Below, one piece after another: positions 5,490-52,573 of a DNA stretch of 55,447 bases (within the stretch, counting starts at the first letter, position 1; the number at the start of each line of letters is the position of its first letter). The notes below the pieces were generated by a model. The model was not told the origin of the DNA. It saw nothing but the letters and a program-made list of their open reading frames with translations, and searched no databases. The DNA comes from a virus (Duplodnaviria > Caudoviricetes): positions 1-55,447 of IMG/VR virus record IMGVR_UViG_3300042991_000477; one strand, given 5' to 3'. Position numbers and translations under genes: made by a program.

Positions 5490-6257
5490 TTATTTATCAT
5501 TTTTTTTTGGAATCAAATATAAACTACCTTTTGATAGATTATTTATTCTTTTTGTTATACACAAATTAATTATATTTCCAATTATAGACGGATCAATATT
5601 ATTTATAAACCCATTTTTTATTGATATTTTATGATCTATATGAGGATACAAATCATTATTAAAATGTAATTTTTTATATTCTAAAATCATTTCATTATCA
5701 TAAAAATCTAATCCATTCCAATTTTTATATAACTCTTTAGTATATTTTCTCGTATAATTACGAACGGCTTTTTTATATAATTCAAATTCAGACAATTTTT
5801 CATCTGGTATTTGTTTACCACTCTTTATTCTTTTATTTTTTTCAATTTCTTTAATTTCATCATTTTGTCTAAAGTGCGCTACTCCATATTTTTCTATAAA
5901 AGTTTTTTTCATTTTATCTTTGACAAATTCTAATTGAAAAACATTATCAACATTATATTTTTTATTTAATGATTTTTTTCTATTTTCTTTTAATAATTTT
6001 AAAAATTTTTTATCATTACACTCTTTACAAATATATTTACCATTTTTATTAAAAACAATCATATAATCTTGATATTTAACATTTGTTTTATTTTCACACT
6101 CATCACAGGCACAATTTAACCTATAATGAGAACCAGATGATAATTCTTTTGGTTTGACTATAATTTTATTTTTACATTTAACATTATATCCTAATTTTTT
6201 ATAATGATTTATGTTATGATTAATAATTGTAACTTCAACAAATTTATCTAAAATCAT
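5490..6257 (-). CDS. Putative HNH homing endonuclease with Zn-ribbon and KYGV repeats
   Basis: CDEC/CKEC, KYNVDNVFQ and KYGVAHFRQ repeats, HIDHKISI...NLCITKRINNLSKG. Confidence 0.7.
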   Translation of the reverse strand: MILDKFVEVTIINHNINHYKKLGYNVKCKNKIIVKPKELSSGSHYRLNCACDECENKTNVKYQDYMIVFNKNGKYICKECNDKKFLKLLKENRKKSLNKKYNVDNVFQLEFVKDKMKKTFIEKYGVAHFRQNDEIKEIEKNKRIKSGKQIPDEKLSEFELYKKAVRNYTRKYTKELYKNWNGLDFYDNEMILEYKKLHFNNDLYPHIDHKISIKNGFINNIDPSIIGNIINLCITKRINNLSKGSLYLIPKKNDK

Positions 6258-6264
6258 TTTATTA

Positions 6265-6684
6265 TTAAATTTTCTTTGAAAGTAATTTAGTTAAATCGTC
6301 AATAAATTTATCTTTAAAGTTCATTTTCATGTTTTCAATTATAGAAAAATTTTGATTTCCTTTAATTTTTATACCTTCTGTTATTTTTCTAAGTTCAGGT
6401 TTTGCTGAATAGAATTTCAATAGTGAATTTACAAATTCATTAATATTTAATGATATTGTTTCATTATATTTAACAATGTGAAGTTCGTTATCTTTTTTTC
6501 TGAAAAAGAAATGAGTGTCAGAATATTTAGATTTTATAGTTTCTAATATATCTTTTATATGTCCAGAATTAAATTTTATTATCTTTTCATCTAATATTTC
6601 AATTCCTAAGTTATTGCCAGTTTTAGGTTGTAATAAAACATCTTCTTTAATATTTTCAAAATCAGTGTATTTTTTAATTGGCAT
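6265..6684 (-). CDS. Hypothetical protein, paralog of 30793-31176
   Basis: LHIVKYN..FVNSL..IKGNQNFSIIENM aligns with LQCIKYN..FVEQL..IEGNKHFSIIKNI. Confidence 0.8.
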   Translation of the reverse strand: MPIKKYTDFENIKEDVLLQPKTGNNLGIEILDEKIIKFNSGHIKDILETIKSKYSDTHFFFRKKDNELHIVKYNETISLNINEFVNSLLKFYSAKPELRKITEGIKIKGNQNFSIIENMKMNFKDKFIDDLTKLLSKKI

Positions 6685-26939: not shown

Positions 26940-27941
26940 ATGATATTAACAAAAGAAGTGAATATACATATTAAAGGTGCTCTTATAAAAAGATATAAAG
27001 ATATAGGATATATTGTTAATACAAAAGATTTAAATGTAATAAAAGTTGAAGATCTACCTAAAAATAGTCAAATGAAGGTTAAAGTAAAATGTGATACTTG
27101 CAATATCGAAAAAGACTTAAAAATTCAAGATTATTATTCAAGTTTTAAAAATAACAAATACTCATGTAATAAATGTAAAATATCAACATACAAAAAAACA
27201 ATGTTAGAAAAATATGGAGTTGAAAATAGTTTTCAATTAGAAGAAATAAAAGAAAAATTAAAAGAAACAAAAATTAAAAAATATAAAGATAAAAATTATA
27301 ATAATAGGGCAAAAGCTTCTGAAACTTGTTTAAATAAATATGGTGTTAAAAATCCTCAGCAGAATATCAACATAAAAGAAAAAACCTCAACTACAAATTT
27401 AGAAAAATATGGATTTAGAGCAGTTTCTAAAAATGAAACGGTAAAGGAAAAAATTAAAAACACGAATTTAAAAAAATGGAATAGTGTGTGTACTCTACAC
27501 TCAAATTTACAAAAAGATAAAATAAAAGAAATATTTATTAATAAATATGGGTTTGATAATCCTATGAAAAACAAAGAAATAATGATTAAATCCCAAATAT
27601 CATCACTAAAAAGAAAAGTTTTTTTAAATACTAAGTTATTATATCAAAGTAGTTATGAATTAAATTTTTTAAATAATTATTATAATAAAATAATTATTGA
27701 AAATGGAAAATCAATAAGAATTACTTTTGATAATAAAAAAACTATGTATCATTCAGATTTTTTTATACCAGATATAAATTTAATTATTGAAATAAAATCA
27801 TCATATTGGTATAAAAAGTATTATAGTAAAAATATAGTAAAACAGCAAGAATGTGAAAAATTAGGATATAAATATATTATAATAATAGATAAAAATTATA
27901 ATGAATTTAATTCTATATTGCAGAATCTTCTAAATTTTTAA
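26940..27941 (+). CDS. Putative homing endonuclease (KYGV repeats + PD-(D/E)XK)
   Basis: CDTC/CNKC; repeated EKYGV.N; YQSSYE..YHSDFFI..IIEIKS. Confidence 0.75.
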   Translation: MILTKEVNIHIKGALIKRYKDIGYIVNTKDLNVIKVEDLPKNSQMKVKVKCDTCNIEKDLKIQDYYSSFKNNKYSCNKCKISTYKKTMLEKYGVENSFQLEEIKEKLKETKIKKYKDKNYNNRAKASETCLNKYGVKNPQQNINIKEKTSTTNLEKYGFRAVSKNETVKEKIKNTNLKKWNSVCTLHSNLQKDKIKEIFINKYGFDNPMKNKEIMIKSQISSLKRKVFLNTKLLYQSSYELNFLNNYYNKIIIENGKSIRITFDNKKTMYHSDFFIPDINLIIEIKSSYWYKKYYSKNIVKQQECEKLGYKYIIIIDKNYNEFNSILQNLLNF

Positions 27942-29391
27942 GTTCAGATTTTAATTTTTCAAGTTCTTCGTGTTTTTCCATCATTACTTTCTTCCATTTT
28001 TTTCTATCAGAATAAACATCACCCATTACAGAGGTTACTACGCCAAGTTCATTCTTAAAAACAGATCCATTTAGAGTTACAATATCAGTAGGATCTATCA
28101 TTAATTGATGACCATTAAATACAGAATAGCTTTTACCTTTAATTTGTTGACCTTTATATGAATCGGCAGAAATATTAAATTGTCTCATTGTTGTTGGATA
28201 CAAAGAACTAAAATCAAAACAAACTGTCCATGTTGCCATACCTCTAACTGGTTCTTTCACCCAACCACCTTTAATTGATGATGCCTCTGTATCACCATAT
28301 TCGTCAACGTGTTCATCTCTAACCAGCACAACATTTTTTTGATCTCTTAATTTTTCTCTTAATATTCCTTCAGTTAATGCTAATGTGGAAATAGCATCTT
28401 TTATTCTAATTTTACCTAAAACAGACATACCATAAAGTATATCAACATATTTCATTTTAATGTGTATTCTTTGAACGAGGCAACTATCTACAGCATTATA
28501 AAAAACGAATTTTTTAAAGTCTTCTCTGTGTAATCTTGTTAAGTCACCTTCATAATTAATTTTTTTAATACCTATAATTTTTTCAGAAGCAAAATCTAAT
28601 GATTGACTTTCTTTAACTTTAATAGATTGATCCCACTTTGTAAATATTTCCATATAGTCAATTATTACTCTGTGTGCTGGTATTTCAGCATAATCTTGTT
28701 GTCCTTTTGAATTGAAATTAAATGGTACATTCATTTTTTTTGTAAATGATGCTACCGATGGATCTATTCCAATTTTTCTTGCTCTTGCCACTAAAAATAC
28801 CCAGTCATAATTAGTGAAATTCCATCCAGTAATTACTGGCATTTTTGGTACTAATTTATTAAAAAAATTATTTAACAGATCATATTCGTTTTTATATTGA
28901 ACATATTTAAATACATAATTTGTTTCAAATTTTTTAAAGTGAATATTAATGTCTGATTCTATTGATTCTATTTGTTGAATAGTTAAAGGTTCTGTACCTA
29001 TAACTAATATTTTATTTTTATTTACTATAGATATAGTTTGAATTGCACTTTCTGCTAAATGTGGTTCTGGTTTTTTATCCAAAATTTCATTTTCAATATC
29101 AACAAAGAAAATATCAGGCTCATTATACTCATATATTTCATTTCTTTCATCTTCTGGTAAATTATCTATAAAATCATACACGGAATATTTATTTGGGTAC
29201 TTCGTGTATATCTCCTTGACACTCAAACCATTCCAGGTTACATATCTACCAGATTTCTCTGGATCATTATCACCAGTAGTTATAAATTTAGTGGGGCTAC
29301 TCCAATTTTTATACTTTAATTTTATAGAACCTTGTTTATCAATGTATGATATGATCAAATTCCCATTCCTAAACTCATAATCAACTATCAT
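27913..29391 (-). CDS. polB: Family B DNA polymerase, N-terminal subunit (exonuclease + motif A)
   Basis: VDIE, ITGWNFTNYDW, YNAVD, KGGWV, FDFSSLYP..FNIS; ends in the fingers, motifs B and C absent. Confidence 0.85.
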   Translation of the reverse strand: MIVDYEFRNGNLIISYIDKQGSIKLKYKNWSSPTKFITTGDNDPEKSGRYVTWNGLSVKEIYTKYPNKYSVYDFIDNLPEDERNEIYEYNEPDIFFVDIENEILDKKPEPHLAESAIQTISIVNKNKILVIGTEPLTIQQIESIESDINIHFKKFETNYVFKYVQYKNEYDLLNNFFNKLVPKMPVITGWNFTNYDWVFLVARARKIGIDPSVASFTKKMNVPFNFNSKGQQDYAEIPAHRVIIDYMEIFTKWDQSIKVKESQSLDFASEKIIGIKKINYEGDLTRLHREDFKKFVFYNAVDSCLVQRIHIKMKYVDILYGMSVLGKIRIKDAISTLALTEGILREKLRDQKNVVLVRDEHVDEYGDTEASSIKGGWVKEPVRGMATWTVCFDFSSLYPTTMRQFNISADSYKGQQIKGKSYSVFNGHQLMIDPTDIVTLNGSVFKNELGVVTSVMGDVYSDRKKWKKVMMEKHEELEKLKSELKNLEDSAI

Positions 29392-29483
29392 AGTGTATAT
29401 TATTATTTTTTTGATGCTATATTTATAGTCATTTAACATTTTTGACTTTGTTTATTTTATATATACATATAAAATAAAAGTTT

Positions 29484-30758
29484 ATGACAAATCAAGAAAA
29501 ATTCATTGAAAAAGCAATTGCTAAACATTTTAATAAATATAATTACTCATTAGTTATATATGAGGAATCCAGAAAAAAGATTAAAATAATTTGTAAAGAA
29601 CATGGAATTTTTGAACAAGAACCAGCCAATCATTTAAGAGGCCAAGGTTGTCCAATATGTGCAGGCGTTAAAAAATGCACACTATCTGATTTTATAGAAA
29701 AAGCAAATAGAATTCACAGTGATAATTATGATTATAGTTTAGTAAACTATAAAAATAATAAAACTAATATAAAAGTAATTTGTAAAAAACATGGCATTTT
29801 TGAAACAAGACCTGATAGACACATTAACTCTAAATCGGGTTGTCCAAAATGTGCAAATAATATTTTATATACCAAAAAAGAATTTATAGAGAAATCTAAT
29901 AAAATTCATAATAATAAATATAATTATTCTAAAGTTAATTATAAAACCGCACTAATAAAAGTAAAAATTATTTGTCCAGAACATGGTATTTTTGAACAGA
30001 GACCAACAAACCATTTAAGAGGAGAAGGATGTATAAAATGTGCAGGAAATTATCAATATACAAATGATGAATTCATTAAAAAAGCAAATAAAATTCATAA
30101 TAATTCATATGATTATTCATTAACAAATTATACTAAAGGTGGGGATAAAATAAAAATTATTTGTAAAGAACACGGTGTTTTTGAACAAAAAGCAAATTCA
30201 CATTTACAAGGATTTAAATGTCCAAATTGTTATAATGAAAAAAGAACATATACCACAGAAAAATTTATAGAATTAGCAAAATTGAAACACGGCAATTTTT
30301 ATAATTATAGTTTAGTTGAATATATACACAGTAGTAAAAAAGTTAAAATTATTTGTCCTATACATGGCGAATTTGAGCAAATTGCTGGTTCTCATATAAG
30401 AGGTGTTGGTTGTTTAGATTGCAATTCATCAAAAGGTGAAAAAGAAATAAGATTATATTTAGAAAATAATAATATTAATTTTAATACTCAACAAATTTTT
30501 GAAAATTGTAAAAATGAAAGATATTTACCTTTTGATTTTTATTTACCAGATATTAATACTTGTATAGAATATGATGGATTACAACATTTTAAAACAATTG
30601 AATATTTTGGTGGGGAATCTACATTAAAAAGAATAAAAATAACAGACCAAATCAAAACAGATTTTTGTAAAAATAATAATATAGAATTATTAAGAATAAG
30701 ATATAATGAAAATATATTAAATAAACTACAATTATTTTTAGAAAAAAGAGACCTTTGA
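29484..30758 (+). CDS. Homing-endonuclease-like protein: five Zn-finger repeats (DUF723-like) + Vsr-like nuclease
   Basis: 5x IIC..HG.FEQ...H..G.GC..C; LPFDFYL..IEYDGLQHF. Confidence 0.8.
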   Translation: MTNQEKFIEKAIAKHFNKYNYSLVIYEESRKKIKIICKEHGIFEQEPANHLRGQGCPICAGVKKCTLSDFIEKANRIHSDNYDYSLVNYKNNKTNIKVICKKHGIFETRPDRHINSKSGCPKCANNILYTKKEFIEKSNKIHNNKYNYSKVNYKTALIKVKIICPEHGIFEQRPTNHLRGEGCIKCAGNYQYTNDEFIKKANKIHNNSYDYSLTNYTKGGDKIKIICKEHGVFEQKANSHLQGFKCPNCYNEKRTYTTEKFIELAKLKHGNFYNYSLVEYIHSSKKVKIICPIHGEFEQIAGSHIRGVGCLDCNSSKGEKEIRLYLENNNINFNTQQIFENCKNERYLPFDFYLPDINTCIEYDGLQHFKTIEYFGGESTLKRIKITDQIKTDFCKNNNIELLRIRYNENILNKLQLFLEKRDL

Positions 30759-41718: not shown

Positions 41719-42456
41719 TTATTGACTGTAAATCTTATCATATAATCTATTTGTTGTGTTAATAAGTTTTTCAATTTTACCTTCTTTTCTTAATTTTTTA
41801 AATACTAAATTCTCAATTGAAAATTCACCACTAGTTGATAAGCCATCTTTTCTAGCTTTCATTATTTTTTTTAATAACTCTTTACTATTATTATAATATT
41901 GTTCAGAATCATAAGAATCTGATTTTCTTTTTGATATTTTTTCTAATTCTTCAATATCATAAACTCTGGCCTCATATTTAATATTAACATCCTCTGTATT
42001 TACGTTTGGTGGATTATAAGAAGGTTTAATTATCCATTTACTATTTAATAATGAATATTGTCCAGATGCAACATGTGCTTCATTTTTATCTTGTACATAT
42101 AATTCAACATCATGTCCTTTTATTACTATATTGTGTTTTAAATTCCATATAAATCTTTGTCCATCAAAAGCTTTTTTTACTAGTGATACATCTTCATTAA
42201 CTTCTGAAAAATCTATAATTATATGAACGTCTAAATCTGAAGATGCTGTATAATTATAGTTGGAAATTGAACCAGTTAATATAATATCTGATATTTCTGT
42301 ATTAATATCTAAATCTTTATGAAAATCTCTAGCTATTCTCAATAATTTCTCTTTAATTCTTTCAATTACATTATTGTTTTCCCAAATATCTGGACATAAT
42401 TTATTTTTATAATTAACTTTTCTTTCAAATATTATAAATTCATTAAAATTTTTCAT
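41719..42456 (-). CDS. Pol-beta-type nucleotidyltransferase with MKNFNEFIIFE leader
   Basis: TGSISNYNY...SDLDVH...VELYVQD. Confidence 0.8.
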   Translation of the reverse strand: MKNFNEFIIFERKVNYKNKLCPDIWENNNVIERIKEKLLRIARDFHKDLDINTEISDIILTGSISNYNYTASSDLDVHIIIDFSEVNEDVSLVKKAFDGQRFIWNLKHNIVIKGHDVELYVQDKNEAHVASGQYSLLNSKWIIKPSYNPPNVNTEDVNIKYEARVYDIEELEKISKRKSDSYDSEQYYNNSKELLKKIMKARKDGLSTSGEFSIENLVFKKLRKEGKIEKLINTTNRLYDKIYSQ

Positions 42457-42999: not shown

Positions 43000-43696
43000 T
43001 GAATTAAAAAATAAAGTTGTAGATAAAATATCAGATTATATTGAATTTGATGTTAATATGATTTTTGATGTTGGTGAATATATTGCAATATATGGTGGTG
43101 CTGTTCGTGATAGTTTAGCTGAAATGCCAATAAATGATATTGATATTTTATGTTTATCAAAATCTGCTTTTAAAATAAAAGAATTGATTATTAGTCTTGG
43201 ATATAAAGAATTAGATTTATATGATAAGGATGCTATAGCTATGTATAATGATATACATATAATTAATGAGCCGTGGACATTTATGAATAATAATTTTAAA
43301 ACAATTCAAATAATAAGACCAGCGTTTGGTACACCTGAACACTTTTATAAAATATTAAAAAATGTTGATATTTCCTGTTGTGGTGTATTTTTAGATAAGA
43401 TGAGAAATAACATCTCATTAAAAGAATCTTGTCAAAATTCTATTTATCAATGTTTATCAAAAACATTTATAATTAATAGTTGGGCAGAATTATATGCATC
43501 TAATAGAACATTGTATAGAGAAGAAAAATTAAAATGTAGAGGTTGGTCAATTGAAAATGAAGATACAGATACTCAAAAAAATAGATTTTATAAATTAATT
43601 AATTTGGAATCGGAAGCTAATTATGATTATAAAATATGGACTGAGTTTGAATATAGAGGTAGAAAAAAACAAAAATATTATATTACCATACAGTGA
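42989..43696 (+). CDS. CCA/poly(A)-polymerase-head-like nucleotidyltransferase
   Basis: IYGGAVRD...INDIDI...VDISCC; may be fused to 43623-44099 via an A7 frameshift. Confidence 0.75.
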   Translation: MKIDELKNKVVDKISDYIEFDVNMIFDVGEYIAIYGGAVRDSLAEMPINDIDILCLSKSAFKIKELIISLGYKELDLYDKDAIAMYNDIHIINEPWTFMNNNFKTIQIIRPAFGTPEHFYKILKNVDISCCGVFLDKMRNNISLKESCQNSIYQCLSKTFIINSWAELYASNRTLYREEKLKCRGWSIENEDTDTQKNRFYKLINLESEANYDYKIWTEFEYRGRKKQKYYITIQ

Positions 43697-44099
43697 CAAT
43701 GATAATTATACAATTAAAATAGACAGTAGTACAATACATATAACGCACATAACTAATAAAACTAAAAAAGAAATAGTGGGCATTATTTCAACACATAAAA
43801 AAGATAATTTTACTGGTAAATCAAAATTCGGTGTAAAAATATACAAAAAAATATTTACTATAAGTTTAACATGCAAATCAACAGAACCATACATAAATAT
43901 TATAATAAATTATATCGTTAATAATATTAAACTTAATAAAATAAAACCTATTATAACAAAAAGACCTGGTTATATGTTTAATGAAAGATATGAATTAATA
44001 TTTGATGATAGTAATTACAACCAAATAATTGATAATATTAATAAATTATCAACAGAAGATATAGAAACACATATAAACGCAGATAAATACAATATCTAA
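43623..44099 (+). CDS. KYNI-tail protein (true start uncertain)
   Basis: Ends ETHINADKYNI. Confidence 0.65.
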   Translation: MIIKYGLSLNIEVEKNKNIILPYSDNDNYTIKIDSSTIHITHITNKTKKEIVGIISTHKKDNFTGKSKFGVKIYKKIFTISLTCKSTEPYINIIINYIVNNIKLNKIKPIITKRPGYMFNERYELIFDDSNYNQIIDNINKLSTEDIETHINADKYNI

Positions 44100-44214: not shown

Positions 44215-45259
44215 ATGGAACTATTTATACAATATTATATTAAAAAAGATAAAAATAAAGATAAAAATAATATAAATCATGGTGACTATATAGGGTATGA
44301 TGTAGAAGAAGATAAAGTACTATTCAAAAATAATTATATGTATGGACCTAATAATGATGATCATGAAAATGACTATTATGACGATTATAAAAATGACTCA
44401 AAAGTCTGCTGGATAGTTGACAGAAAACATGTAGATTTAAGATCTTTTAAAAATACAAACTATAAAATTATACAAAATTTAGAAATGAAAAATTTCATTT
44501 TTGATAATGATACAGACATTCTAAATATAGAAGAATGTAGTGTATATGAACTACCTAAATTACCCGACAATTTAAAAATAATAAATATTATTTCAACAAC
44601 ATTAAAATCATTACCTGAGCTACCAAATTCATTAGAAAAATTAACTTTAGATCCAAATATATTCATTGATAATAATATTAAATTACCAAATAACCTAAAA
44701 AAATTATATATAAGACAAGGTGATTTAAAATCATTACCTGAACTACCAGATTCTTTAGAAATTTTAGACTGTAGTGAAAATAAAATTAAAAATATAAATA
44801 CATTACCAAAAAACCTAAAAAAATTAAATTGTGATTCTAATAAATTAAAATCACTACCAAATTTTAATGATAATTTAAAGAAAATTAAATTGTGATTCTA
44901 ATAAATTAAAATCACTACCAGATTTTAATAAAAAATTAAAACTAATAAATTGTACAAATAATAAAATTGATAAATTCCCAAATTTAAAAAATAATAAAAA
45001 ATCACCACGAATATCAATAGATAATAATGTTATATCTGAAAATGAATTTAGACTATTTGAATTATTTGAAAATATACCTAACCCTAATGATCCAAAATTT
45101 GAAGATTATCAATTAAAGTGCCAATTTATTTGTGGTGATAATAATCTACCTTTTATTAATGAATATTCATATATGGAATGGTATAAAGATAAAGTAAATG
45201 ATAAAGATTTTAATATAAAATATAGAAAAGAAAAATTAACTACAATAAATAACAAATAA
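44215..45259 (+). CDS. Leucine-rich repeat protein with RKEKL tail (frameshift near 44884)
   Basis: LKSLPELP.SLE.L bacterial-type LRRs; duplicated LNCDSNKLKSLP unit shows one extra A; continues to YRKEKLTTINNK-stop. Confidence 0.8.
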
Positions 45260-45261
45260 AT

Positions 45262-45388
45262 ATAAAATTTCAAAGAATTTCCAAAAATATATAGAAAATT
45301 CTTTGAAATTTACCATAAATAGTGTCATAAAATGTCATAAAATGTCATAAAATGTCAAAAATTGTACGGAAATTCTTTGAAATTTTAT
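45262..45388. repeat. 21-bp perfect inverted repeat enclosing a third copy and 3.5 tandem TGTCATAAAA units
   Basis: ATAAAATTTCAAAGAATTTCC 45262-82 / reverse complement 45368-88; partial copy 45296-311; 10-mers 45323-61. Confidence 0.9.
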
Positions 45389-45569
45389 TTGAATATACAA
45401 ATATACTAAAACAAAAACCCGTACCACCGAGAACTATCCCAGTTTTTAAAAATGATCCTAAAATGAGCACCTATATTTAAGGTTGATCCTCAATTAGTTA
45501 TAACAAATTGAAAATCAGCATATTATAAATATATAACTATCTGATAATCAGCAAATTGCAAAGACATCT

Positions 45570-45597
45570 CATTATCATAATTATAATTATGTTCAAT
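45570..45597 (+). other. dif/Xer-like site
   Basis: CATTATCATAA-TTATAA-TTATGTTCAAT. Confidence 0.55.
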
Positions 45598-45602
45598 AAA
45601 AA

Positions 45603-45646
45603 ACTTAACATAATTATTATATTATTAAGTAAAAAATTTAACATAA
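45603..45646 (-). other. Two reversed XerD-like arms
   Basis: TTATGTTAAGT (45603-13) and perfect TTATGTTAAAT (45636-46) on the minus strand. Confidence 0.45.
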
Positions 45647-45665
45647 TATTTAATATATATGTATT

Positions 45666-45986
45666 ATGAGATATTTAAAATTTTATGAGCATGATTTTGA
45701 AAATAGTTATTATGGTATAAAGAAAGGTGATATTGTTATATACTCTGATCCTTCTAAAAGTAGATTAAAATATGGTGAAAGATATATAGTACATCAAACT
45801 CTAAAAATTGGAAGTGATAAAAAAGATGATATTATTACAAATGAAGTTAATAATTCAAGTGATGTTATAAAACTAACAGATATGAGTGGAAACCCCATAA
45901 CAGATAAATATGGAGAAATAATGTTATTTTATGCTCATAGATTTTCTATAGAAATACCATTCATGGCAAACAAATACAATATATGA
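45666..45986 (+). CDS. KYNI-tail family small protein (SH3/KOW-like core)
   Basis: MRYLKFYEH..IKKGDIVI..ANKYNI. Confidence 0.85.
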   Translation: MRYLKFYEHDFENSYYGIKKGDIVIYSDPSKSRLKYGERYIVHQTLKIGSDKKDDIITNEVNNSSDVIKLTDMSGNPITDKYGEIMLFYAHRFSIEIPFMANKYNI

Positions 45987-46258
45987 AACACCTAAAAACA
46001 TATGAAAAATTAGTTGGTGAACTACGAAGAAGAACTCCAAATTTCAAAGAGGGCGACTTTGTTATTTGTATTGATCCATATAATGATCCAGATAATACTT
46101 ATAATAATTTAGAAAGAGATAAACAATATCAAATAACATATTTAGAACAAAATTTTGATGGTGTCTGGCGTTGTTCAGTAGATGATAGAGAACAAAAGTA
46201 TTATTGTTTTAGATTCTTATCAGAATTAGAATACAACGCAAATAAATATAATATCTAA
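45983..46258 (+). CDS. KYNI-tail family small protein (SH3/KOW-like core)
   Basis: MKHLKTYEK..FKEGDFVIC..ANKYNI. Confidence 0.85.
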   Translation: MKHLKTYEKLVGELRRRTPNFKEGDFVICIDPYNDPDNTYNNLERDKQYQITYLEQNFDGVWRCSVDDREQKYYCFRFLSELEYNANKYNI

Positions 46259-46286
46259 AATTAATATATAATAAGAAAAGATAAAT

Positions 46287-46565
46287 ATGAAAAGAATAAA
46301 AATGTTTGAAGAGGTATGGCAACCTAATACTGATGAAACTACTTTTCCACCAGGTGCAAAAAATAATCAACCTAATGTTACTACAAGACAACTTCATGAT
46401 AAATTAAAGTCAGGTGATTTAACTCCTAGGGAAATTACCAATATGTATTTTAATCCATTAATTGATAATATTCAAAAACTCGATAACGAAATTTCTAGTG
46501 AATTAATAGCTTATTATATACAAAAATTAGAAACATTATCACAAGCAAATACCTACAATATTTAA
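46287..46565 (+). CDS. KYNI-tail family small protein
   Basis: MKRIKMFEE..ANTYNI; TAATATATA at 46262. Confidence 0.85.
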   Translation: MKRIKMFEEVWQPNTDETTFPPGAKNNQPNVTTRQLHDKLKSGDLTPREITNMYFNPLIDNIQKLDNEISSELIAYYIQKLETLSQANTYNI

Positions 46566-46655
46566 AATATCAAAGATGCTCAATGTTAAATTAATGTTAT
46601 CGTGGCCTTATTTAGAATTAGACTAAATAAAAATTACACCTGACAGTCATAATGT

Positions 46656-46683
46656 CAGTTACGTAATAATAATTATGTTAAAT
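46656..46683 (+). other. dif/Xer-like site with a perfect XerD arm
   Basis: CAGTTACGTAA-TAATAA-TTATGTTAAAT. Confidence 0.65.
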
Positions 46684-46823
46684 ATCAAAGATGCTCATTA
46701 TCAATGCTTTGCAATTTTATGATTTTTTGTCAGGTTATTATGTTAAGTTGTAACTAATTGGTTATCAATGGTTTATTTCTGTTTATCATAAGACCTATTA
46801 TTGGACATTAGATATAAATACTT

Positions 46824-47462
46824 TTATTTCTTTTTTTGTCCACGCTCCAGTGCTTTGTTTTTAATTTTATTTTTTGTATCTTGCGAGATTTTTCTTTTTA
46901 CACCATTATTTTTTTCTAAATATTCTTGATATTGTCTTTTTTTAGTTTCACTAATTTTAATTTTAACTTCTTCACTTCTTGATTTTCCTATTTTAGGTAG
47001 TCCAATTTTTATTTTATGGTTATCTGTAAGTTTTCGTCCTTTATTATTTTTTTGTATATATCCATTATCTCTTTTATTTTTCCATGTTTCTTTTAACTTT
47101 GCTTTTGTTTCATCAGAATGTTTAGTATTTGTTCTATGATGTATATTAGCAAGTTTTGCTTCTTCTAAAGATCTAGATGATGGTATATAAAAATCATAAT
47201 CTTTTCTGGTGTTTCTACAATTTGTACCAAACGCTAATATATGAAAAGCTGCTGCTATTTGTTTATTATCAGGATATATTCTATGTAATAACCAATGTGA
47301 AAGAAAATGCTCTCTGTATGTCAATTTAACTATATTTTCAGCAATATTACTACCATTCATACATTTTGGTATAATATGATGTTTCTCAAAATATTGATTC
47401 TTATTAAATGTTCTAAACTTTGCTCTATTCATAATAGAGTCATATACTTTTAAATAATTCAT
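46824..47462 (-). CDS. HNH homing endonuclease with NUMOD3 repeats
   Basis: EKHHIIPKCMNG..NIVKLTYREHFLSHWLL; KHSDETKAKL, SEEVKIKIS. Confidence 0.88.
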   Translation of the reverse strand: MNYLKVYDSIMNRAKFRTFNKNQYFEKHHIIPKCMNGSNIAENIVKLTYREHFLSHWLLHRIYPDNKQIAAAFHILAFGTNCRNTRKDYDFYIPSSRSLEEAKLANIHHRTNTKHSDETKAKLKETWKNKRDNGYIQKNNKGRKLTDNHKIKIGLPKIGKSRSEEVKIKISETKKRQYQEYLEKNNGVKRKISQDTKNKIKNKALERGQKKK

Positions 47463-47556
47463 AAATTTTATATTTATATATAAATTTAAATAGGTTCTAA
47501 AGTGGTATTATGTTAACTAACTTTGCAACTTTGTTATTTAGAATGAATCTAAACTT

Positions 47557-47620
47557 AAAAAAAAGTCATGACCACTTAAAACTCCCCGAAGTTTTACCTT
47601 CGCCCTTCATCTTAGATGAC
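47557..47620 (-). ncRNA. Candidate small structured RNA or leader
   Basis: Follows a full promoter; GC-richer hairpins; ends in T8; only a 14-codon ORF. Confidence 0.35.
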
Positions 47621-47624
47621 AGTA

Positions 47625-47656
47625 CAAAGATAAATATTAATATTGTTATTACCAAA
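47625..47656 (-). promoter_or_regulatory. Bacteroidota sigma-A-type promoter
   Basis: TTTG-N20-TATCTTTG. Confidence 0.7.
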
Positions 47657-47727
47657 TTTATAGTATATTATTTATATAGTTTCACTTAGAAGTCACATCA
47701 TATTTTATATATAGAATAAAAAATAAT

Positions 47728-48261
47728 ATGCTAAAAGAATGTATATTGTGTAATATAAAAAAAGAAGAAGATGAATTTGTATTTAGAACAGATACTAATA
47801 AGTATAGAACTGTTTGTAAAGAATGTAATAAAATATTAAAAAGAAAATATAGAAATAATAAAGAAAGAAATAGAACAGATCAAAAAAAATATTATCTAAA
47901 CAACAAAGAAAAAGTATTAACAAGAGTTAAAAATTATAAATTAAAAATGAAAGATGATCCTAATTATAAATTAATTAGATCATTAAGAAGACGAATGTAT
48001 AATTTTTTTAAAGGTAATATTTTTAGTAAAAAAAGTACAATTGAATTAATAGGTTGTAATCAAACAGACTTAAAAAAACATATTGAATCATTATTTACGG
48101 AAGGAATGAATTGGAATAATTATGGTTATTACGGTTGGCATATTGATCATAAGATAGCATTATCTAATGCACAAACAAATGAGGAAATTTATAAATTATG
48201 TCATTATACAAATTTACAACCTTTATGGTGTAAAGATAACTTATCAAAAAATAAATATTAA
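47728..48261 (+). CDS. HNH-type endonuclease
   Basis: CILC/CKEC; LIGC..LKKHIE..GMNWNNYG..WHIDH..HYTNLQPLW..NLSK. Confidence 0.85.
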   Translation: MLKECILCNIKKEEDEFVFRTDTNKYRTVCKECNKILKRKYRNNKERNRTDQKKYYLNNKEKVLTRVKNYKLKMKDDPNYKLIRSLRRRMYNFFKGNIFSKKSTIELIGCNQTDLKKHIESLFTEGMNWNNYGYYGWHIDHKIALSNAQTNEEIYKLCHYTNLQPLWCKDNLSKNKY

Positions 48262-48270
48262 ATCATAATA

Positions 48271-48299
48271 TAAACTTCTTTGAAATTTTAAACTATATT
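48271..48299 (+). promoter_or_regulatory. TAAACTT-N16-TATATT promoter candidate
   Basis: Upstream of the GNAT gene. Confidence 0.55.
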
Positions 48300-48313
48300 A
48301 ATCATCATAAATA

Positions 48314-48709
48314 ATGCAGTGTATATTCAATTTTTTCACAGGGAACAGCAATGTTCCCTTTTTTATTATGAATAGAAATGAAGGTATAAAATTTAAAGAT
48401 GATATATTCAGAACTGAACACGGTTCAATAAGATATAGAATATATGAGGACAACATAGTTATCTTCATGGGTTCTTACGTTGATAAGATGTACAGAGGAC
48501 ATGGAATATTTAAAGAAATGTTAACCACGCTACTAAATCAAATAAGCATCTATGATATTTATGCACCAGTATCAAATAGTAATGTAATAAACTTATTTAA
48601 AAGGATGGGCTTTGAAATTTATAATGAACCAATAAGATACTGGAGACAATGCGAGAATACTACTAATATGTATAAAAAAAAGGAGAGTGGCCAGACTCTC
48701 CCTTGTTAA
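48314..48709 (+). CDS. GNAT acetyltransferase
   Basis: YVDKMYRGHGIF acetyl-CoA motif; N..VINLFKRMGF. Confidence 0.8.
   Translation: MQCIFNFFTGNSNVPFFIMNRNEGIKFKDDIFRTEHGSIRYRIYEDNIVIFMGSYVDKMYRGHGIFKEMLTTLLNQISIYDIYAPVSNSNVINLFKRMGFEIYNEPIRYWRQCENTTNMYKKKESGQTLPC
48674..48701 (-). terminator. Intrinsic terminator
   Basis: GGAGAGT-ctggcc-ACTCTCC followed by T8 on the minus strand. Confidence 0.75.
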
Positions 48710-48752
48710 ATAACCAAACTAATAACTATATGAAAATGAAAAATTGACAACA
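48674..48752 (-). ncRNA. Candidate ~80-nt small RNA antisense to the GNAT 3' end
   Basis: Bounded by a consensus promoter and a terminator; no ATG inside. Confidence 0.5.
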
Positions 48753-48755
48753 GTA

Positions 48756-48786
48756 CAAATATAATACTTTTATTTCATTCACCAAA
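48756..48786 (-). promoter_or_regulatory. Bacteroidota sigma-A-type promoter
   Basis: TTTG-N19-TATATTTG. Confidence 0.7.
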
Positions 48787-48807
48787 TTATTATATGCATT
48801 TTTAATA

Positions 48808-48861
48808 TTTATCGTGTTATTAGTCGATAAAGATAGTTTATCGTGTTAAGATACGATAAAT
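48808..48861. repeat. Two tandem dyads TTTATCGTGTTA..CGATAAA
   Basis: Operator-like palindromes just upstream of the promoter. Confidence 0.6.
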
Positions 48862-48940
48862 ATTAAAAAAGGTCTGGTGAAAAACAACTAAATCTTCTGT
48901 ACCGCTGATTATCGGGGCCACATTTCGGGGCCACACACGG

Positions 48941-49227
48941 TTATATGTTATATTTAGTTACTGCAATCTCTTCTTCTTTGATGTTAACATATCCACCAAA
49001 GGTTAACCCATATCTATCGTAACATTCGTCATAGTTATACTTATCAACAATATAATTATAACCCCAGCCATAATGAAAATATCCTACAAATATATACTTA
49101 ACATTAGTATGCTTTCTTATACCTAACATAAGATTAATACTATCAGTATCTACACCAATAGTTCTCATAGCACCTTTGAATCTATTATCAAGTGGTACTA
49201 ACCAATAATGCTTATACTTCTTATCAT
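48941..49227 (-). CDS. KYNI-tail protein, paralog of 49224-49541 (1-nt shift just after the overlapping ATG)
   Basis: KHYWLVPLDNRFKGAMRTIGVD vs KYWLIPVDDRMYKSMRDINVD; ends VTKYNI. Confidence 0.7.
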
Positions 49228-49541
49228 ATGTTATATCTCTTTATGTCAAGCCCTATCTCATCTATATTAACCTTACCCATATACTTATAGCCACAATCAT
49301 TATAGATATTATTACCATCATACTTATAATCTGTAGAAGTATATTCCCACACACCATTGTTTAACGCCATATAAATATACCCATCGTTATATATTATCTT
49401 AAGAAAGTTATGAGTCTTTAAAAGATTTAATGCTAACTCTATATCAACATTAATATCCCTCATAGACTTATACATCCTATCATCAACAGGTATCAACCAA
49501 TACTTACCACGCTTATCATTCATATCATTCATATCATTCAT
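49224..49541 (-). CDS. KYNI-tail (RYNI) protein with (MND)n start repeat
   Basis: Tandem ATGAATGAT at the start; ends IKRYNI. Confidence 0.8.
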   Translation of the reverse strand: MNDMNDMNDKRGKYWLIPVDDRMYKSMRDINVDIELALNLLKTHNFLKIIYNDGYIYMALNNGVWEYTSTDYKYDGNNIYNDCGYKYMGKVNIDEIGLDIKRYNI

Positions 49542-49619
49542 ATCATTCTATACTACACAGTACCCAGTATCTACACTACACCCACCGTATGAGCTTACAG
49601 AGCACACCGCAAGATACTA

Positions 49620-49651
49620 CAAAGTTAATTATAATATTTTAAATATCCAAA
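49620..49651 (-). promoter_or_regulatory. Bacteroidota sigma-A-type promoter
   Basis: TTTG-N20-TAACTTTG. Confidence 0.65.
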
Positions 49652-49728
49652 GATGCAACTCTTGTTATTTAACATGACACAGCATACTTATTATAATAAT
49701 CGTAATGAACTGATGCTCTATTGATTAC

Positions 49729-49756
49729 ATTGAACATAATTAAAATTACGTGAAAC
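49729..49756 (-). other. dif/Xer-like site
   Basis: Minus strand GTTTCACGTAA-TTTTAA-TTATGTTCAAT. Confidence 0.55.
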
Positions 49757-49774
49757 ATTTTTGGTGGTTGGGGT

Positions 49775-49802
49775 TCTATACTTAATAATAATTATGATAA
49801 AC
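49775..49802 (+). other. Degenerate dif/Xer-like site
   Basis: TCTATACTTAA-TAATAA-TTATGATAAAC. Confidence 0.35.
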
Positions 49803-49887
49803 ATTTTTAATATTTTGCAGATGAGGTAGTTAGGTGAATTGGTCGGGAAACTTTTTTAAAATTTTTGATTGATGTTAGTGTTGAGTG

Positions 49888-49915
49888 ATGAGTCATAATT
49901 ATTATTATGTAAACC
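49888..49915 (+). other. dif/Xer-like site
   Basis: ATGAGTCATAA-TTATTA-TTATGTAAACC. Confidence 0.5.
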
Positions 49916-50064
49916 TGGTGGAAAGGCTCGAAGAGCATGCGCGTGTATAGAGTGTAGATATGTGTATGGGGAGGCCATGGGCAAAAGATTGTTTTTTGGC
50001 ATTTTCTTTTGGGGTGTACTTGAAGAATTTCGATTCTACTATATTTTCTCAAAAGTTGTATTTT

Positions 50065-50146
50065 AAATTGGATTGAAAAATTTTTTTGGGGAAAAATCTT
50101 TGATATTTTCTGGGGGAATTTTTTTTTGGTTATATGGCGTGGCCAC
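50065..50146. repeat. ~81-bp direct repeat, copy 1
   Basis: Near-identical to 50539-50619. Confidence 0.95.
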
Positions 50147-50147
50147 A

Positions 50148-50408
50148 TTAGATATTATATTTATTAGCTGTCAACATCATTTTTAATTCGGTTTCGGTAT
50201 TTGCTACTATAAAAAACTGTTCAATTATATCTAATTTTAAAAATTTAATAATAAAGTACTTTTTATATTCTATTGAAAATGTTGGATTTTTTTCGCCTTC
50301 TGAAATATCGGTTATTTTACCGATATTATCAATAAAAAGTTCGGAATGTTTTCTATCCAATAAGTGTACTTTTTGTGGATCTACAATAATATAATTTCCA
50401 ACTTTCAT
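50148..50408 (-). CDS. KYNI-tail family small protein (SH3/KOW-like core, no leader)
   Basis: MKVGNYII..ANKYNI. Confidence 0.75.
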   Translation of the reverse strand: MKVGNYIIVDPQKVHLLDRKHSELFIDNIGKITDISEGEKNPTFSIEYKKYFIIKFLKLDIIEQFFIVANTETELKMMLTANKYNI

Positions 50409-50538
50409 ATTATAAATTTTTGACAAAAATAGCAAAAGCTTTTTATATTACAAAATTTTTTTGGGGAAATTTTAGAATTTTATATGTAAAAGCGTATAAA
50501 TAACAAGAGTTGACTATTTTATATGTAAAAGAGTATAA

Positions 50539-50619
50539 AAATTGGATTGAAAAATTTTTTTGGGGAAAAATCTTTGATATTTTCTGGGGGAATTTTTTTT
50601 GGTTATATGGCGTGGCCAC
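50539..50619. repeat. ~81-bp direct repeat, copy 2
   Basis: Near-identical to 50065-50146. Confidence 0.95.
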
Positions 50620-50626
50620 GAAAAGA

Positions 50627-50983
50627 TTAGATATTATATTTTTTTGAATTTTGTCTAATTTCAATTTCTTTTAAAATATCTACGATATTAGGTGATGCTT
50701 TTATTATATCATATGGGTATATAATTATTGAATCGTTTTCAAAAAATTGTTGTATAAAGAATTGTAAATAGATATTTTGATATTTAACTTTTACGTAGTT
50801 ATTAGTTGATATGTGTATAATTCTTCCTATATTATTTTCTAGAAAATCTTTTAAATTTTCTTTTGCACGATTTGAATTTGGTCGAGAGTCTATGTTATGT
50901 ATTTGGCAAAGAACATAATCGCCCACATTAAATTGTGTTGTACTTATATTTTTAGTATTTTCGTATGATTTAAGGTGTTTCAT
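50627..50983 (-). CDS. KYNI-tail family small protein
   Basis: MKHLKSYEN..FNVGDYVL..SKKYNI. Confidence 0.85.
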   Translation of the reverse strand: MKHLKSYENTKNISTTQFNVGDYVLCQIHNIDSRPNSNRAKENLKDFLENNIGRIIHISTNNYVKVKYQNIYLQFFIQQFFENDSIIIYPYDIIKASPNIVDILKEIEIRQNSKKYNI

Positions 50984-51237
50984 ATATTATATTTTTTTGT
51001 GTTAATATATAATTCTTTTTCTTCTGGTGTTAATCTTTTTAATTCGTTTGCTATATATACACTTAATGTACCTTTTATTTCAACCATATATGATTGTTGT
51101 ATTATACTAATACTAAATAATTTTTTATCCTTCATTATTGATACTATAATACCTATTTCATCTGAATCTTTTATTCTAACATAGTCACCTACATTAAATT
51201 GATAATCATTTTTTTCAAAATTTTTAATATGTTTCAT
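50980..51237 (-). CDS. KYNI-tail family small protein
   Basis: MKHIKNFEK..FNVGDYVR..TKKYNI. Confidence 0.85.
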   Translation of the reverse strand: MKHIKNFEKNDYQFNVGDYVRIKDSDEIGIIVSIMKDKKLFSISIIQQSYMVEIKGTLSVYIANELKRLTPEEKELYINTKKYNI

Positions 51238-51266
51238 ATATTAATTGATTTTTGTCAATATATCTT

Positions 51267-51584
51267 TCAGATATTATATTTATTAATTATTGAAAATAAT
51301 AATATTTTTTCTTTACATTCTTCTAAACTATCTGATACATATTTAATACAATTATATTCTTCTGATTCTAACAAATCTATGTTAGCAGAGTTTTCATTAT
51401 TATAATTTTGTAAATTATTATCTTTTATACAATATAAAGTAGTAACTGCTATAGATGGCCAATTATTTTTTACAATTTTACATATTTCCCATGAATCTTC
51501 GATTTCGTCATCATACCAAATAATATATCGACCAACTTTATATTGTGGAAGTTTATTTTTCTCATATGTTTTAATGTATTTCAT
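51267..51584 (-). CDS. KYNI-tail family small protein
   Basis: MKYIKTYEK..YKVGRYII..INKYNI. Confidence 0.85.
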   Translation of the reverse strand: MKYIKTYEKNKLPQYKVGRYIIWYDDEIEDSWEICKIVKNNWPSIAVTTLYCIKDNNLQNYNNENSANIDLLESEEYNCIKYVSDSLEECKEKILLFSIINKYNI

Positions 51585-51928
51585 ATATTGTATTTATCTG
51601 CTGATATATAGTGTTCTATATCTTCTTTATTTTGGGAGAAGTGTTTAATATCTATTATAGGTACGAGTATGGTATTTCCTACTTTGAGTACATCAGAGTA
51701 ATCAGAGTATTGGACTTTGTATAATAGGTTTTTTGGTATATTATATGGAAATAAAACAGTCATATCATCATTGTCCACAAAACCTGAAATGACACCTATA
51801 TTATCAGTTACGAAATTATTTAAATCTTTATAAAAGCTTAGGTTAGCATCATTTTCTTTTAATATAACGAAGTATCCTGCGTGAGGTTCGTCTTCAATAG
51901 TATTTTCGAATGTTTTTAGATGTTTCAT
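51581..51928 (-). CDS. KYNI-tail family small protein
   Basis: MKHLKTFEN..ADKYNI. Confidence 0.85.
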   Translation of the reverse strand: MKHLKTFENTIEDEPHAGYFVILKENDANLSFYKDLNNFVTDNIGVISGFVDNDDMTVLFPYNIPKNLLYKVQYSDYSDVLKVGNTILVPIIDIKHFSQNKEDIEHYISADKYNI

Positions 51929-52253
51929 ATATTATATTTTTTTGATGTTATTATGGCTTCTAATTTTTCTTTATTGGGTGAGAAGTGTATTATTTCTGAT
52001 TTTTCAAAATATCTTATACCGTTATTGTTGTTAGATTTATCTATATCAAAAAATGGTTCTAAGCTATTTGGCACGTTTTCGTATTTAACAATTAAAAGAA
52101 TTTTACCATTATCTTCTATATCTTTTATATAAACTTCAATGTTATTTTCAAGGTAATAATTAATTTGTCCCATGTATCATCAGATGTAATAACAAAATCT
52201 CCAATTTTGAGTACGTCTTCAATAATATTTTCGTATGTTTTTAAGTGTTTCAT
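51925..52253 (-). CDS. KYNI-tail family small protein (frameshift near 52170)
   Basis: MKHLKTYENIIEDVLKIGDFVITSDD from ATG 52253, continuing in ORF 51925-52173 to SKKYNI. Confidence 0.75.
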
Positions 52254-52573
52254 ATGTTATATTTATTTACATCATCATTTAGTATTTCTGTTTCTATTTC
52301 TTCTGGTGTTGCGAATCTTATTATTCTTGACGAAGCAAAATTATTCAGTATCCATTTACCTTTGTATTGTTTACCTGATAAATCGGTTTTTGGGTTGCTT
52401 AAATATTCTAAATCATACTCATAATCATAAGAGTGTCCTATTATTTTAGCTGGGTGTGTATCAATAAAATTTCTAAGGTGTTGTCCAGCCCAATAATTTT
52501 TTAAAAATACCCAATCTCCTATTTTATATGTATTTTCGGTTATTATATTTTCATATGTTTTTAAATATTTCAT
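52250..52573 (-). CDS. KYNI-tail family small protein
   Basis: MKYLKTYEN..YKIGDWVF..VNKYNI. Confidence 0.85.
   Translation of the reverse strand: MKYLKTYENIITENTYKIGDWVFLKNYWAGQHLRNFIDTHPAKIIGHSYDYEYDLEYLSNPKTDLSGKQYKGKWILNNFASSRIIRFATPEEIETEILNDDVNKYNI

Follow-up and report, generated by a model that had tools for sequence, protein, structure and literature searches.

Dif-like sites clustered in the variable region of a putative huge phage, and their tentative reading as targets of a Xer-family recombinase

Within 4.4 kb of the viral record IMGVR_UViG_3300042991_000477 (Duplodnaviria; Caudoviricetes) lies a cluster of short sites that resemble bacterial dif. The record was analysed whole (55,447 bases; 22% G+C; completeness rating 8%), and this entire stretch is referred to here as the window. 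Because related records reach 501 kb at 70% complete, the genome from which it derives is estimated at about 0.7 Mb, and the window would be a piece of a huge phage. The cluster comprises four or five full sites, lettered A to E below, plus five half-sites, and the accessory region around it is variable, containing free-standing homing endonucleases along with genes that match no known family. Sites A and C enclose 4.2 kb that hold five small genes with products ending in (K/T/R)YNI, two HNH endonuclease genes and a GNAT gene, with site B inside. The sites do form a family, of imperfect palindromes 24 to 28 bases long whose building block is the half-site AYTTAACATAA(T), and recognition by a Xer-family enzyme is, from sequence, the single most likely reading of them. 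The members of the family are these:

45570..45597, plus strand: site A, a full site of 11-6-11 layout, CATTATCATAA TTATAA TTATGTTCAAT; the 16 bases of its core read as a perfect palindrome.
45603..45635, minus strand: unit 2 of a triplet, half-site ACTTAACATAA; XerD-like arm matching at 10/11, partner arm decayed; 76% identical to unit 1.
45636..45646, minus strand: unit 3 of the triplet, half-site ATTTAACATAA; perfect XerD-like arm (11/11) with no partner arm, ending 19 bases before the ATG at 45666.
46656..46683, plus strand: site B, full site, CAGTTACGTAA TAATAA TTATGTTAAAT; right arm 11/11 against the dif XerD arm.
46738..46748, plus strand: half-site TTATGTTAAGT, 10/11; within the left-hand copy of a roughly 20-base direct repeat around a homing-endonuclease gene.
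47508..47518, plus strand: half-site TTATGTTAACT, 10/11; in the right copy of the same direct repeat.
49667..49677, minus strand: half-site TCATGTTAAAT, 10/11.
49729..49756, minus strand: site C, full site, GTTTCACGTAA TTTTAA TTATGTTCAAT; inverted relative to A and B, and first in rank when left out of the matrix.
49775..49802, no strand assigned: site D, which is weak and repeats C in tandem at a distance of 46 bases (D15).
49888..49915, no strand assigned: site E, ATGAGTCATAA TTATTA TTATGTAAACC; scores higher on the minus strand.

The pattern CRTAA-N6-TTATGT has exactly four matches in the 55,447 bases (45576+, 46662+, 49734- and 49894+) and none outside 45576-49910; these are the cores of the 28-mers at 45570+, 46656+, 49729- and 49888+, which is where an earlier note on this DNA had placed four full sites of 11-6-11 layout. 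Dinucleotide shuffles of the window contain 0.39 matches on average, and none of 100 reaches four; Markov models of order 1 and order 3, built on the 6,768 intergenic bases, predict 0.04 matches, and four were reached in 0 of 1000 runs of each. With leave-one-out weight matrices the sites at 45570+, 46656+ and 49729- each rank 1 of 110,837 positions. The site at 49888 ranks 31 on the plus strand but first on the minus strand, and its orientation is therefore ambiguous. A weaker site had also been reported at 49775, and it is real but weak, scoring 13 to 14 vs 25 to 31 for the others. All the lone XerD-like arms of the earlier note lie where it placed them, although those at 45603 and 45636 are better described as units 2 and 3 of a 33-base tandem triplet (D11; units at 45572, 45605 and 45638) whose first unit is site A. 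The claim that the whole set is intergenic holds for all but 49888, which is overlapped by an open reading frame (ORF) of 113 residues on the minus strand (49807-50148), without family match and taken for spurious. Since the region 44896-50150 contains about 30% of the window's intergenic DNA, clustering in itself is only a moderate surprise; the motif, on its own, is far removed from chance.

The similarity among the sites is short and uneven. It is confined to about 22 to 28 bases, and A and C, an inverted pair (I19), are identical at 20/22 positions of a 22-base core with unrelated flanks. The right arms of A, B and C are alike at 10 to 11 of 11 positions and their left arms keep the inner 5 letters only. 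The centre between ATAA and TTAT is exactly 6 bases long in all full sites, both in the window and in the one related contig (locus L268) described below. A and B stand in direct and B and C in inverted orientation, with E ambiguous. The consensus of 31 half-sites from the window and L268 is AYTTAACATAAT, the reverse of TTATGTTAAAT, which is the XerD arm of E. coli dif (the reference being the sequence quoted in the earlier note; the same arm is seen in bacterial loci). Against this arm, B matches at 11/11 positions, A and C at 10/11, D at 9 and E at 8. Single-stranded folding of the sites is weak (-1.2 to -2.7 kcal/mol; z-scores -2.4 to +0.4), and they should therefore act as duplex binding sites. 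A role as RNA or DNA hairpin or as terminator was rejected on these folds and on the lack of a T-run after the sites; a general promoter motif was likewise rejected, there being no further strong matches in the window or in relatives.

Relatives of this phage were reached through the gene at 41719-42456 (about 70% protein identity), with which they have two or three neighbour genes in common; gene order is almost lost beyond 43.7 kb, and between 43.6 and 50 kb nothing is shared with them. The pattern RTAA-N6-TTATGTWMAAY, present three times in the window, has no match in four relatives (about 1.19 Mb), where the 10-base half-site occurs unclustered at control density; all five of its copies in the window fall within 45605-47516. 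The family would therefore be confined to this phage lineage rather than serve a conserved core function. A strict 22-base pattern occurs at 119 metagenome loci or more, and among the 119 listed one is clearly homologous. This locus, L268 (25% G+C, from a contig of 4,497 bases), packs nine units into about 290 bases at spacings of 23 to 43 bases, with five units in one direction and four in the opposite one. Stretches of 17 to 20 bases are identical between it and the window sites, and one of 26 bases agrees at 96%; the array adjoins an ORF ending in ANKYNL, and the locus takes in 49 residues of one ORF and the end of another. In viral contigs the strict pattern gave 11 loci with single matches and no clusters.

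A tandem half-site pattern gave 75 loci in viral contigs, where four of the densest (L342, L310, L349 and L296) proved to be simple tandem repeats and unrelated, and L304, at 49% G+C, a different array. At 5850-6650 of that last contig at least ten copies of YTTAACATAAT stand in arrays beside two TGTGGATAA 9-mers, which we take to resemble DnaA boxes; here an unrelated phage may employ the 10-mer in its origin or in a control region.

These comparisons bear on the simplest alternative, that intergenic DNA so rich in A+T and so low in complexity produced the sites by chance. The low G+C content of the window speaks for it, as does the frequency of TTATGTTAAAT with at most one mismatch, which is not enriched window-wide (20 found vs 22.9 expected, with 8 of the 20 within 45587-49739). 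Neither the shuffles nor the intergenic models reach four matches, however, and the leave-one-out ranks, the absence of matches from equally AT-rich related DNA and the recurrence of long identical stretches in L268 are all contrary to it. Composition is rejected on these grounds, and chance is left exceedingly improbable.

Likeness to dif was judged from the phage side outwards. The pattern THWCRTAA-N6-TTATGTTMAAT, derived from sites A to C only, occurs in at least 120 places in bacterial genomes. Among the 120 matches listed, 42 have a TTWAYA centre and the right arm TTATGTTAAAT, commonly with TTG at the outer left, and the titles examined name Bacteroidota; in the comparison with Bacteroidota dif that had been suggested, the phage pattern returns the recurring dif-type form of that group. 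Five genomes (four being complete chromosomes by title) were reached through loci of this kind, and the closest match in each is a single place, as expected of dif. When the dif core alone was sought in 301 Bacteroidota genomes, YATAA-TTTAYA-TTATGTTAAAT recurred in about 35, as counted by eye. A second form with conserved flanks, TAATATCRTAA-AAATGY-TTATGTTCAAT, accounts for 14 among the 120 matches listed, under titles of Bacilli, Clostridia, Tenericutes and the like (L048, L069, L070, L073, L079, L090 and L112 are among these loci).

Recombinase elements carry the same arms. Locus L237, a metagenome contig (1-3894, 45% G+C), encodes three tandem tyrosine recombinases (PF00589 at 1e-35, 1e-22 and 5e-25) between inverted ends of about 62 bases, each of which combines a complete dif-like core with further copies of the arm; L165 is similar. 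Three tandem recombinases between inverted ends is the recombinase-in-trio (RIT) layout (PMC3414803 and PMC10214605). Clusters of these arms therefore do occur at the ends of recombinase elements, and tandem spacing alone would not rule out recognition by a recombinase in the phage.

On these observations we propose, tentatively and as a possibility, that the sites are targets of a Xer-family recombinase supplied in trans and that they bound accessory modules. The arguments in its favour are a XerD arm and a spacing that are both exact, two arms that are unevenly conserved, the return of dif sites by a pattern taken from the phage, and the ends of recombinase elements. The enzyme would come from the host (XerC/XerD) or from a gene located elsewhere; a module between inverted sites would be flipped by recombination and one between direct sites excised, and the tandem half-sites would serve as additional binding arms or be left over from earlier events. 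Both the binding of a Xer-type enzyme and any recombination are what we infer from these likenesses.

Several observations weigh against the proposal and are best taken together. No PF00589 or PF02899 match is present in the window, and no recombinase family was found among the 65 window ORFs scanned against Pfam, in agreement with the earlier note; the tyrosine recombinase and its N-terminal domain are also absent from the four related records, one of them 70% complete. The centres of the sites differ (TTATAA in A, TAATAA in B, TTTTAA in C and TTATTA in E), so that full strand exchange between A, B, C and E would be hindered. Although site B and the bacterial site L062 are identical at 21/22 arm letters, this is not independent evidence, because the search pattern fixes most arm letters, and the three free outer letters have no extra likeness to bacterial sites. 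Bacterial dif-type loci are solitary, 9 of 80 having one extra half-site within 400 bases and none having two. The tandem units of the window and L268 are 23 to 46 bases apart and several are half-sites only, a layout that operator or iteron arrays fit as well as recombination sites do. Finally, no relative of the KYNI trio or the GNAT gene that would place the modules in a second context was found in viral contigs, and none of the 119 metagenome loci listed has a second cluster with KYNI or GNAT genes.

Rearrangement was sought in Logan contigs of the runs X2, X3, X4 and X6. The contigs, the only near-identical DNA, are collinear across every site and have no rearrangement joint there; as contigs drop rare forms, this counts neither for nor against recombination. 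In the joints listed in run contigs, sides 20 to 24 letters long match at 85% likeness and resemble unrelated AT-rich DNA. The sole structural variant, in one contig of run X3, skips 474 bases between perfect 62-base direct repeats away from the sites and is either a deletion variant or an assembly collapse. These repeats (50065-50126 and 50539-50600) lie downstream of two KYNI genes, and an exact 29-base probe taken from them found no other fragments of the phage.

The layout of the arrays suggests another kind of ligand. They could bind a dimeric protein that does not recombine DNA, whether a phage or host regulator at operators ahead of small operons or a replication initiator or partition protein at iterons, with the likeness to dif coincidental. 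The tandem spacing (33, 33 and 46 bases in the window, and the range already given for the nine units of L268) would suit such a protein; adjacent 28-base footprints would overlap in L268, and an 18-base core would not. Arrays stand upstream of the gene starts at 45666 and 49541 and of the first L268 ORF, the weak single-strand folds favour duplex binding sites here too, and the solitary habit of bacterial dif-type loci points the same way. Yet no candidate DNA-binding protein is encoded nearby: six ORFs of the region (four of 30 to 59 residues) and the start of the L268 ORF gave no Pfam match at E up to 1. The motif is missing from other operon starts in the window and from relatives, the five-to-four orientation in L268 is not tied to genes, and the exact match to dif in an 11-base half-site and in spacing would have to be chance. 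We regard a binding array of this sort as the main rival, only somewhat less likely than recognition by a Xer-family recombinase.

The genes and other features between and beside the sites bear on what might be exchanged and by what means:

45666..46565, plus strand: three small genes, products ending in KYNI or TYNI (106, 91 and 92 residues); no family match.
46640..46658, no strand assigned: hairpin with a 6-bp stem, abutting site B.
46824..47462, minus strand: free-standing HNH homing endonuclease (phrog_655; DNA match to T4 mobD).
47728..48261, plus strand: HNH or endonuclease VII-like gene.
48368..48709, plus strand: GNAT acetyltransferase; likely start at 48368, after a terminator-like hairpin at 48340-48359.
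48941..49541, minus strand: two small genes, products ending in KYNI and RYNI (75 and 105 residues).

This setting recalls PeSLs, short promoter/terminator units known from T4-type phages (PMC4122927; see also PMC2839356), and the sites might be regulatory cassettes of that type, through which modules are shuffled by homologous recombination with no site-specific enzyme. The variability of the region, its homing endonucleases and small genes without a known family, and the T4-like DNA polymerase of the phage would be in keeping with this; so would the position of the endonuclease gene at 46824-47462 between direct repeats that contain the half-site, and the hairpin that abuts site B. That hairpin is the only one adjacent to a site, however, no promoter was identified within the sites, and the shared core of about 22 bases is short for homologous exchange. 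A scan for sigma-70 promoters in the window (63 found vs 55.6 expected) is uninformative at 22% G+C. Cassettes of this type are accordingly rated as rather improbable.

Promoters for a phage-encoded RNA polymerase are a further alternative. Early promoters of jumbo phages are conserved AT-rich motifs of about 10 bases that vary by phage (PMC7598289); the half-site has 10 to 12 bases, TATG among them. Against this, the sites are palindromic, occur in both orientations and are confined to 4.4 kb, with other operon starts in the window lacking them, and no phage RNA polymerase gene was found among the 65 window ORFs scanned. A Bacteroidota-type promoter motif is moreover separate from the sites and lies between site C and the gene at 49541. 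That phage promoters explain the sites is very unlikely. The Bacteroidota-type pattern precedes two genes in the site region; it has six matches in the window vs 3.39 expected, four of them in the site region, but 11 of 100 shuffles reach six and the excess is not significant.

Other features of the neighbourhood were noted in passing. The copies that bracket the endonuclease gene (46715-46775 and 47485-47545) are direct, of the form GGT(T)ATTATGTTA...ACTAA, and differ by a 7-base indel; it looks as if an endonuclease cassette had been inserted between two array units. Upstream of site A, a 770-base gene-free stretch holds a 21-base perfect inverted repeat (45262-45388) whose 85-base loop has three 10-base tandem repeats (single-stranded DNA fold, z = -4.5). 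In the leucine-rich-repeat gene at 44215-44998, 61-base DNA repeats (D1) continue beyond the stop codon at 44895, and its 3' end is probably truncated or decaying. The 600-base 'non-coding' stretch with sites C to E includes a hydrophobic ORF of 29 residues (49978-50067, plus strand) after GGGGAGG, overlapping the doubtful 113-residue ORF of the opposite strand.

The small genes themselves are linked by their ends. A (K/R/T)YN(I/L/V) tail, mostly KYNI, is found on 18 of the 88 ORFs of at least 60 residues, many of which start with an MKHLKTYE-like sequence and have unrelated middles; they lie at 76-2317, 43623-44099, 45666-46565, 48941-49541 and 50148-52573 and have no family match. Because the codons of the tail vary, the motif belongs to the protein level, and the tail may be a shared address or interaction tag. 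Among related loci, 6 of 37 ORFs of L025 have such a tail, seven other loci have none, and L268 has the one ORF end.

Across the window as a whole there are a T4-like family B DNA polymerase (phrog_2062, 1.6e-74), PhoH, a CHAP domain, sugar-modifying enzymes and many HNH or homing endonucleases; the ORFs read well under code 11, and no known RNA families or tRNAs were found in the window. The polymerase gene is split: 27913-29439 (minus strand) spans only residues 1-485 of relatives of 973 to 1018 residues, the C-terminal half was not found anywhere in the window, and homing-endonuclease genes flank the split gene at 26940-27941 and 29484-30758.

Recognition by a Xer-family recombinase can now be set against the roles once suggested for the cluster, which the earlier note had called a Xer-recombination hotspot for dimer resolution, integration or module exchange. 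The dif likeness behind that name stands, in the arm, the spacing, the bacterial sites found and the ends of recombinase elements; activity at the sites is unsupported, with no recombinase encoded in the window or four relatives and no module found in another setting. Dimer resolution is unlikely for several sites in both orientations, with about 1.19 Mb of related DNA that has none, and integration finds no support. Module inversion, excision or exchange would fit best among the three. The fullest version of the idea, in which a phage of about 0.7 Mb, probably of Bacteroidota, would run a plasmid-style dif-module system whose modules are inverted, excised and exchanged by host XerC/XerD or another recombinase, is speculative and, judged from sequence, improbable as a whole; were it true, a giant phage would gain a site-specific means of shuffling its variable region. 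A limited literature search found no paper joining huge, jumbo or mega phages with dif or Xer, except a review of Ralstonia filamentous phages with both kinds of term.

Should the sites be used by a Xer enzyme, module exchange dependent on Xer, so far a matter of small plasmids and small single-stranded DNA phages, would be extended to a giant double-stranded DNA phage, and the turnover of variable regions in huge phages would have a concrete mechanism. Should a regulator or initiator bind them instead, they would mark a control region common to at least two uncultured huge phages, and an exact copy of the XerD arm would caution against motif-based calls of dif in AT-rich DNA. Either way the sites are short and defined.

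The cluster can be compared with several known systems. Chromosomal dif is likewise a 28-base 11-6-11 imperfect palindrome with inner CATAA...TTATG and a right arm better kept than the left. It is single, however, whereas the phage has at least four full sites and half-sites within 4.4 kb in both orientations; related phages are without the sites, and the phage centres differ from the bacterial forms and from each other.

Tandem half-site arrays do not fit the picture of the pdif modules of Acinetobacter plasmids. Other aspects do: shared with those modules (PMC6449649, PMC13141974 and PMC11705084) are several dif-like sites on a single replicon at distances of 0.2 to 3 kb, accessory genes lying between the sites, the inversion of some pairs, and the lack of a recombinase on the element. 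The modules belong to small plasmids, unlike a huge phage, and in the phage the orientations (A+, B+, C-) do not seem to alternate strictly and no module was observed in another context. The Bacteroidetes microvirus proviruses offer a precedent in phage DNA, with dif-like sequences and no recombinase of their own, some having an extra dif-like site near one end; they are single-stranded DNA phages of 5 to 6 kb that insert at the host dif (PMC3091885), whereas here the sites would lie inside a genome of about 0.7 Mb, without an integration junction being seen.

In RIT elements, as represented by L237, the inverted ends are made of the same arms (TTATGTTAAAT and its reverse), several per end, to which the A and C pair of the phage is comparable; the window differs in having no recombinase gene, and the likeness of A and C covers about 22 bases vs about 62. 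The PeSL cassettes of T4-type phages (PMC4122927) are likewise short units, repeated in the intergenic spaces of variable regions between small novel genes and found with a T4-like replication gene. They combine a promoter with a stem-loop and act by homologous recombination, whereas the phage units are dif-shaped palindromes with weak hairpins.

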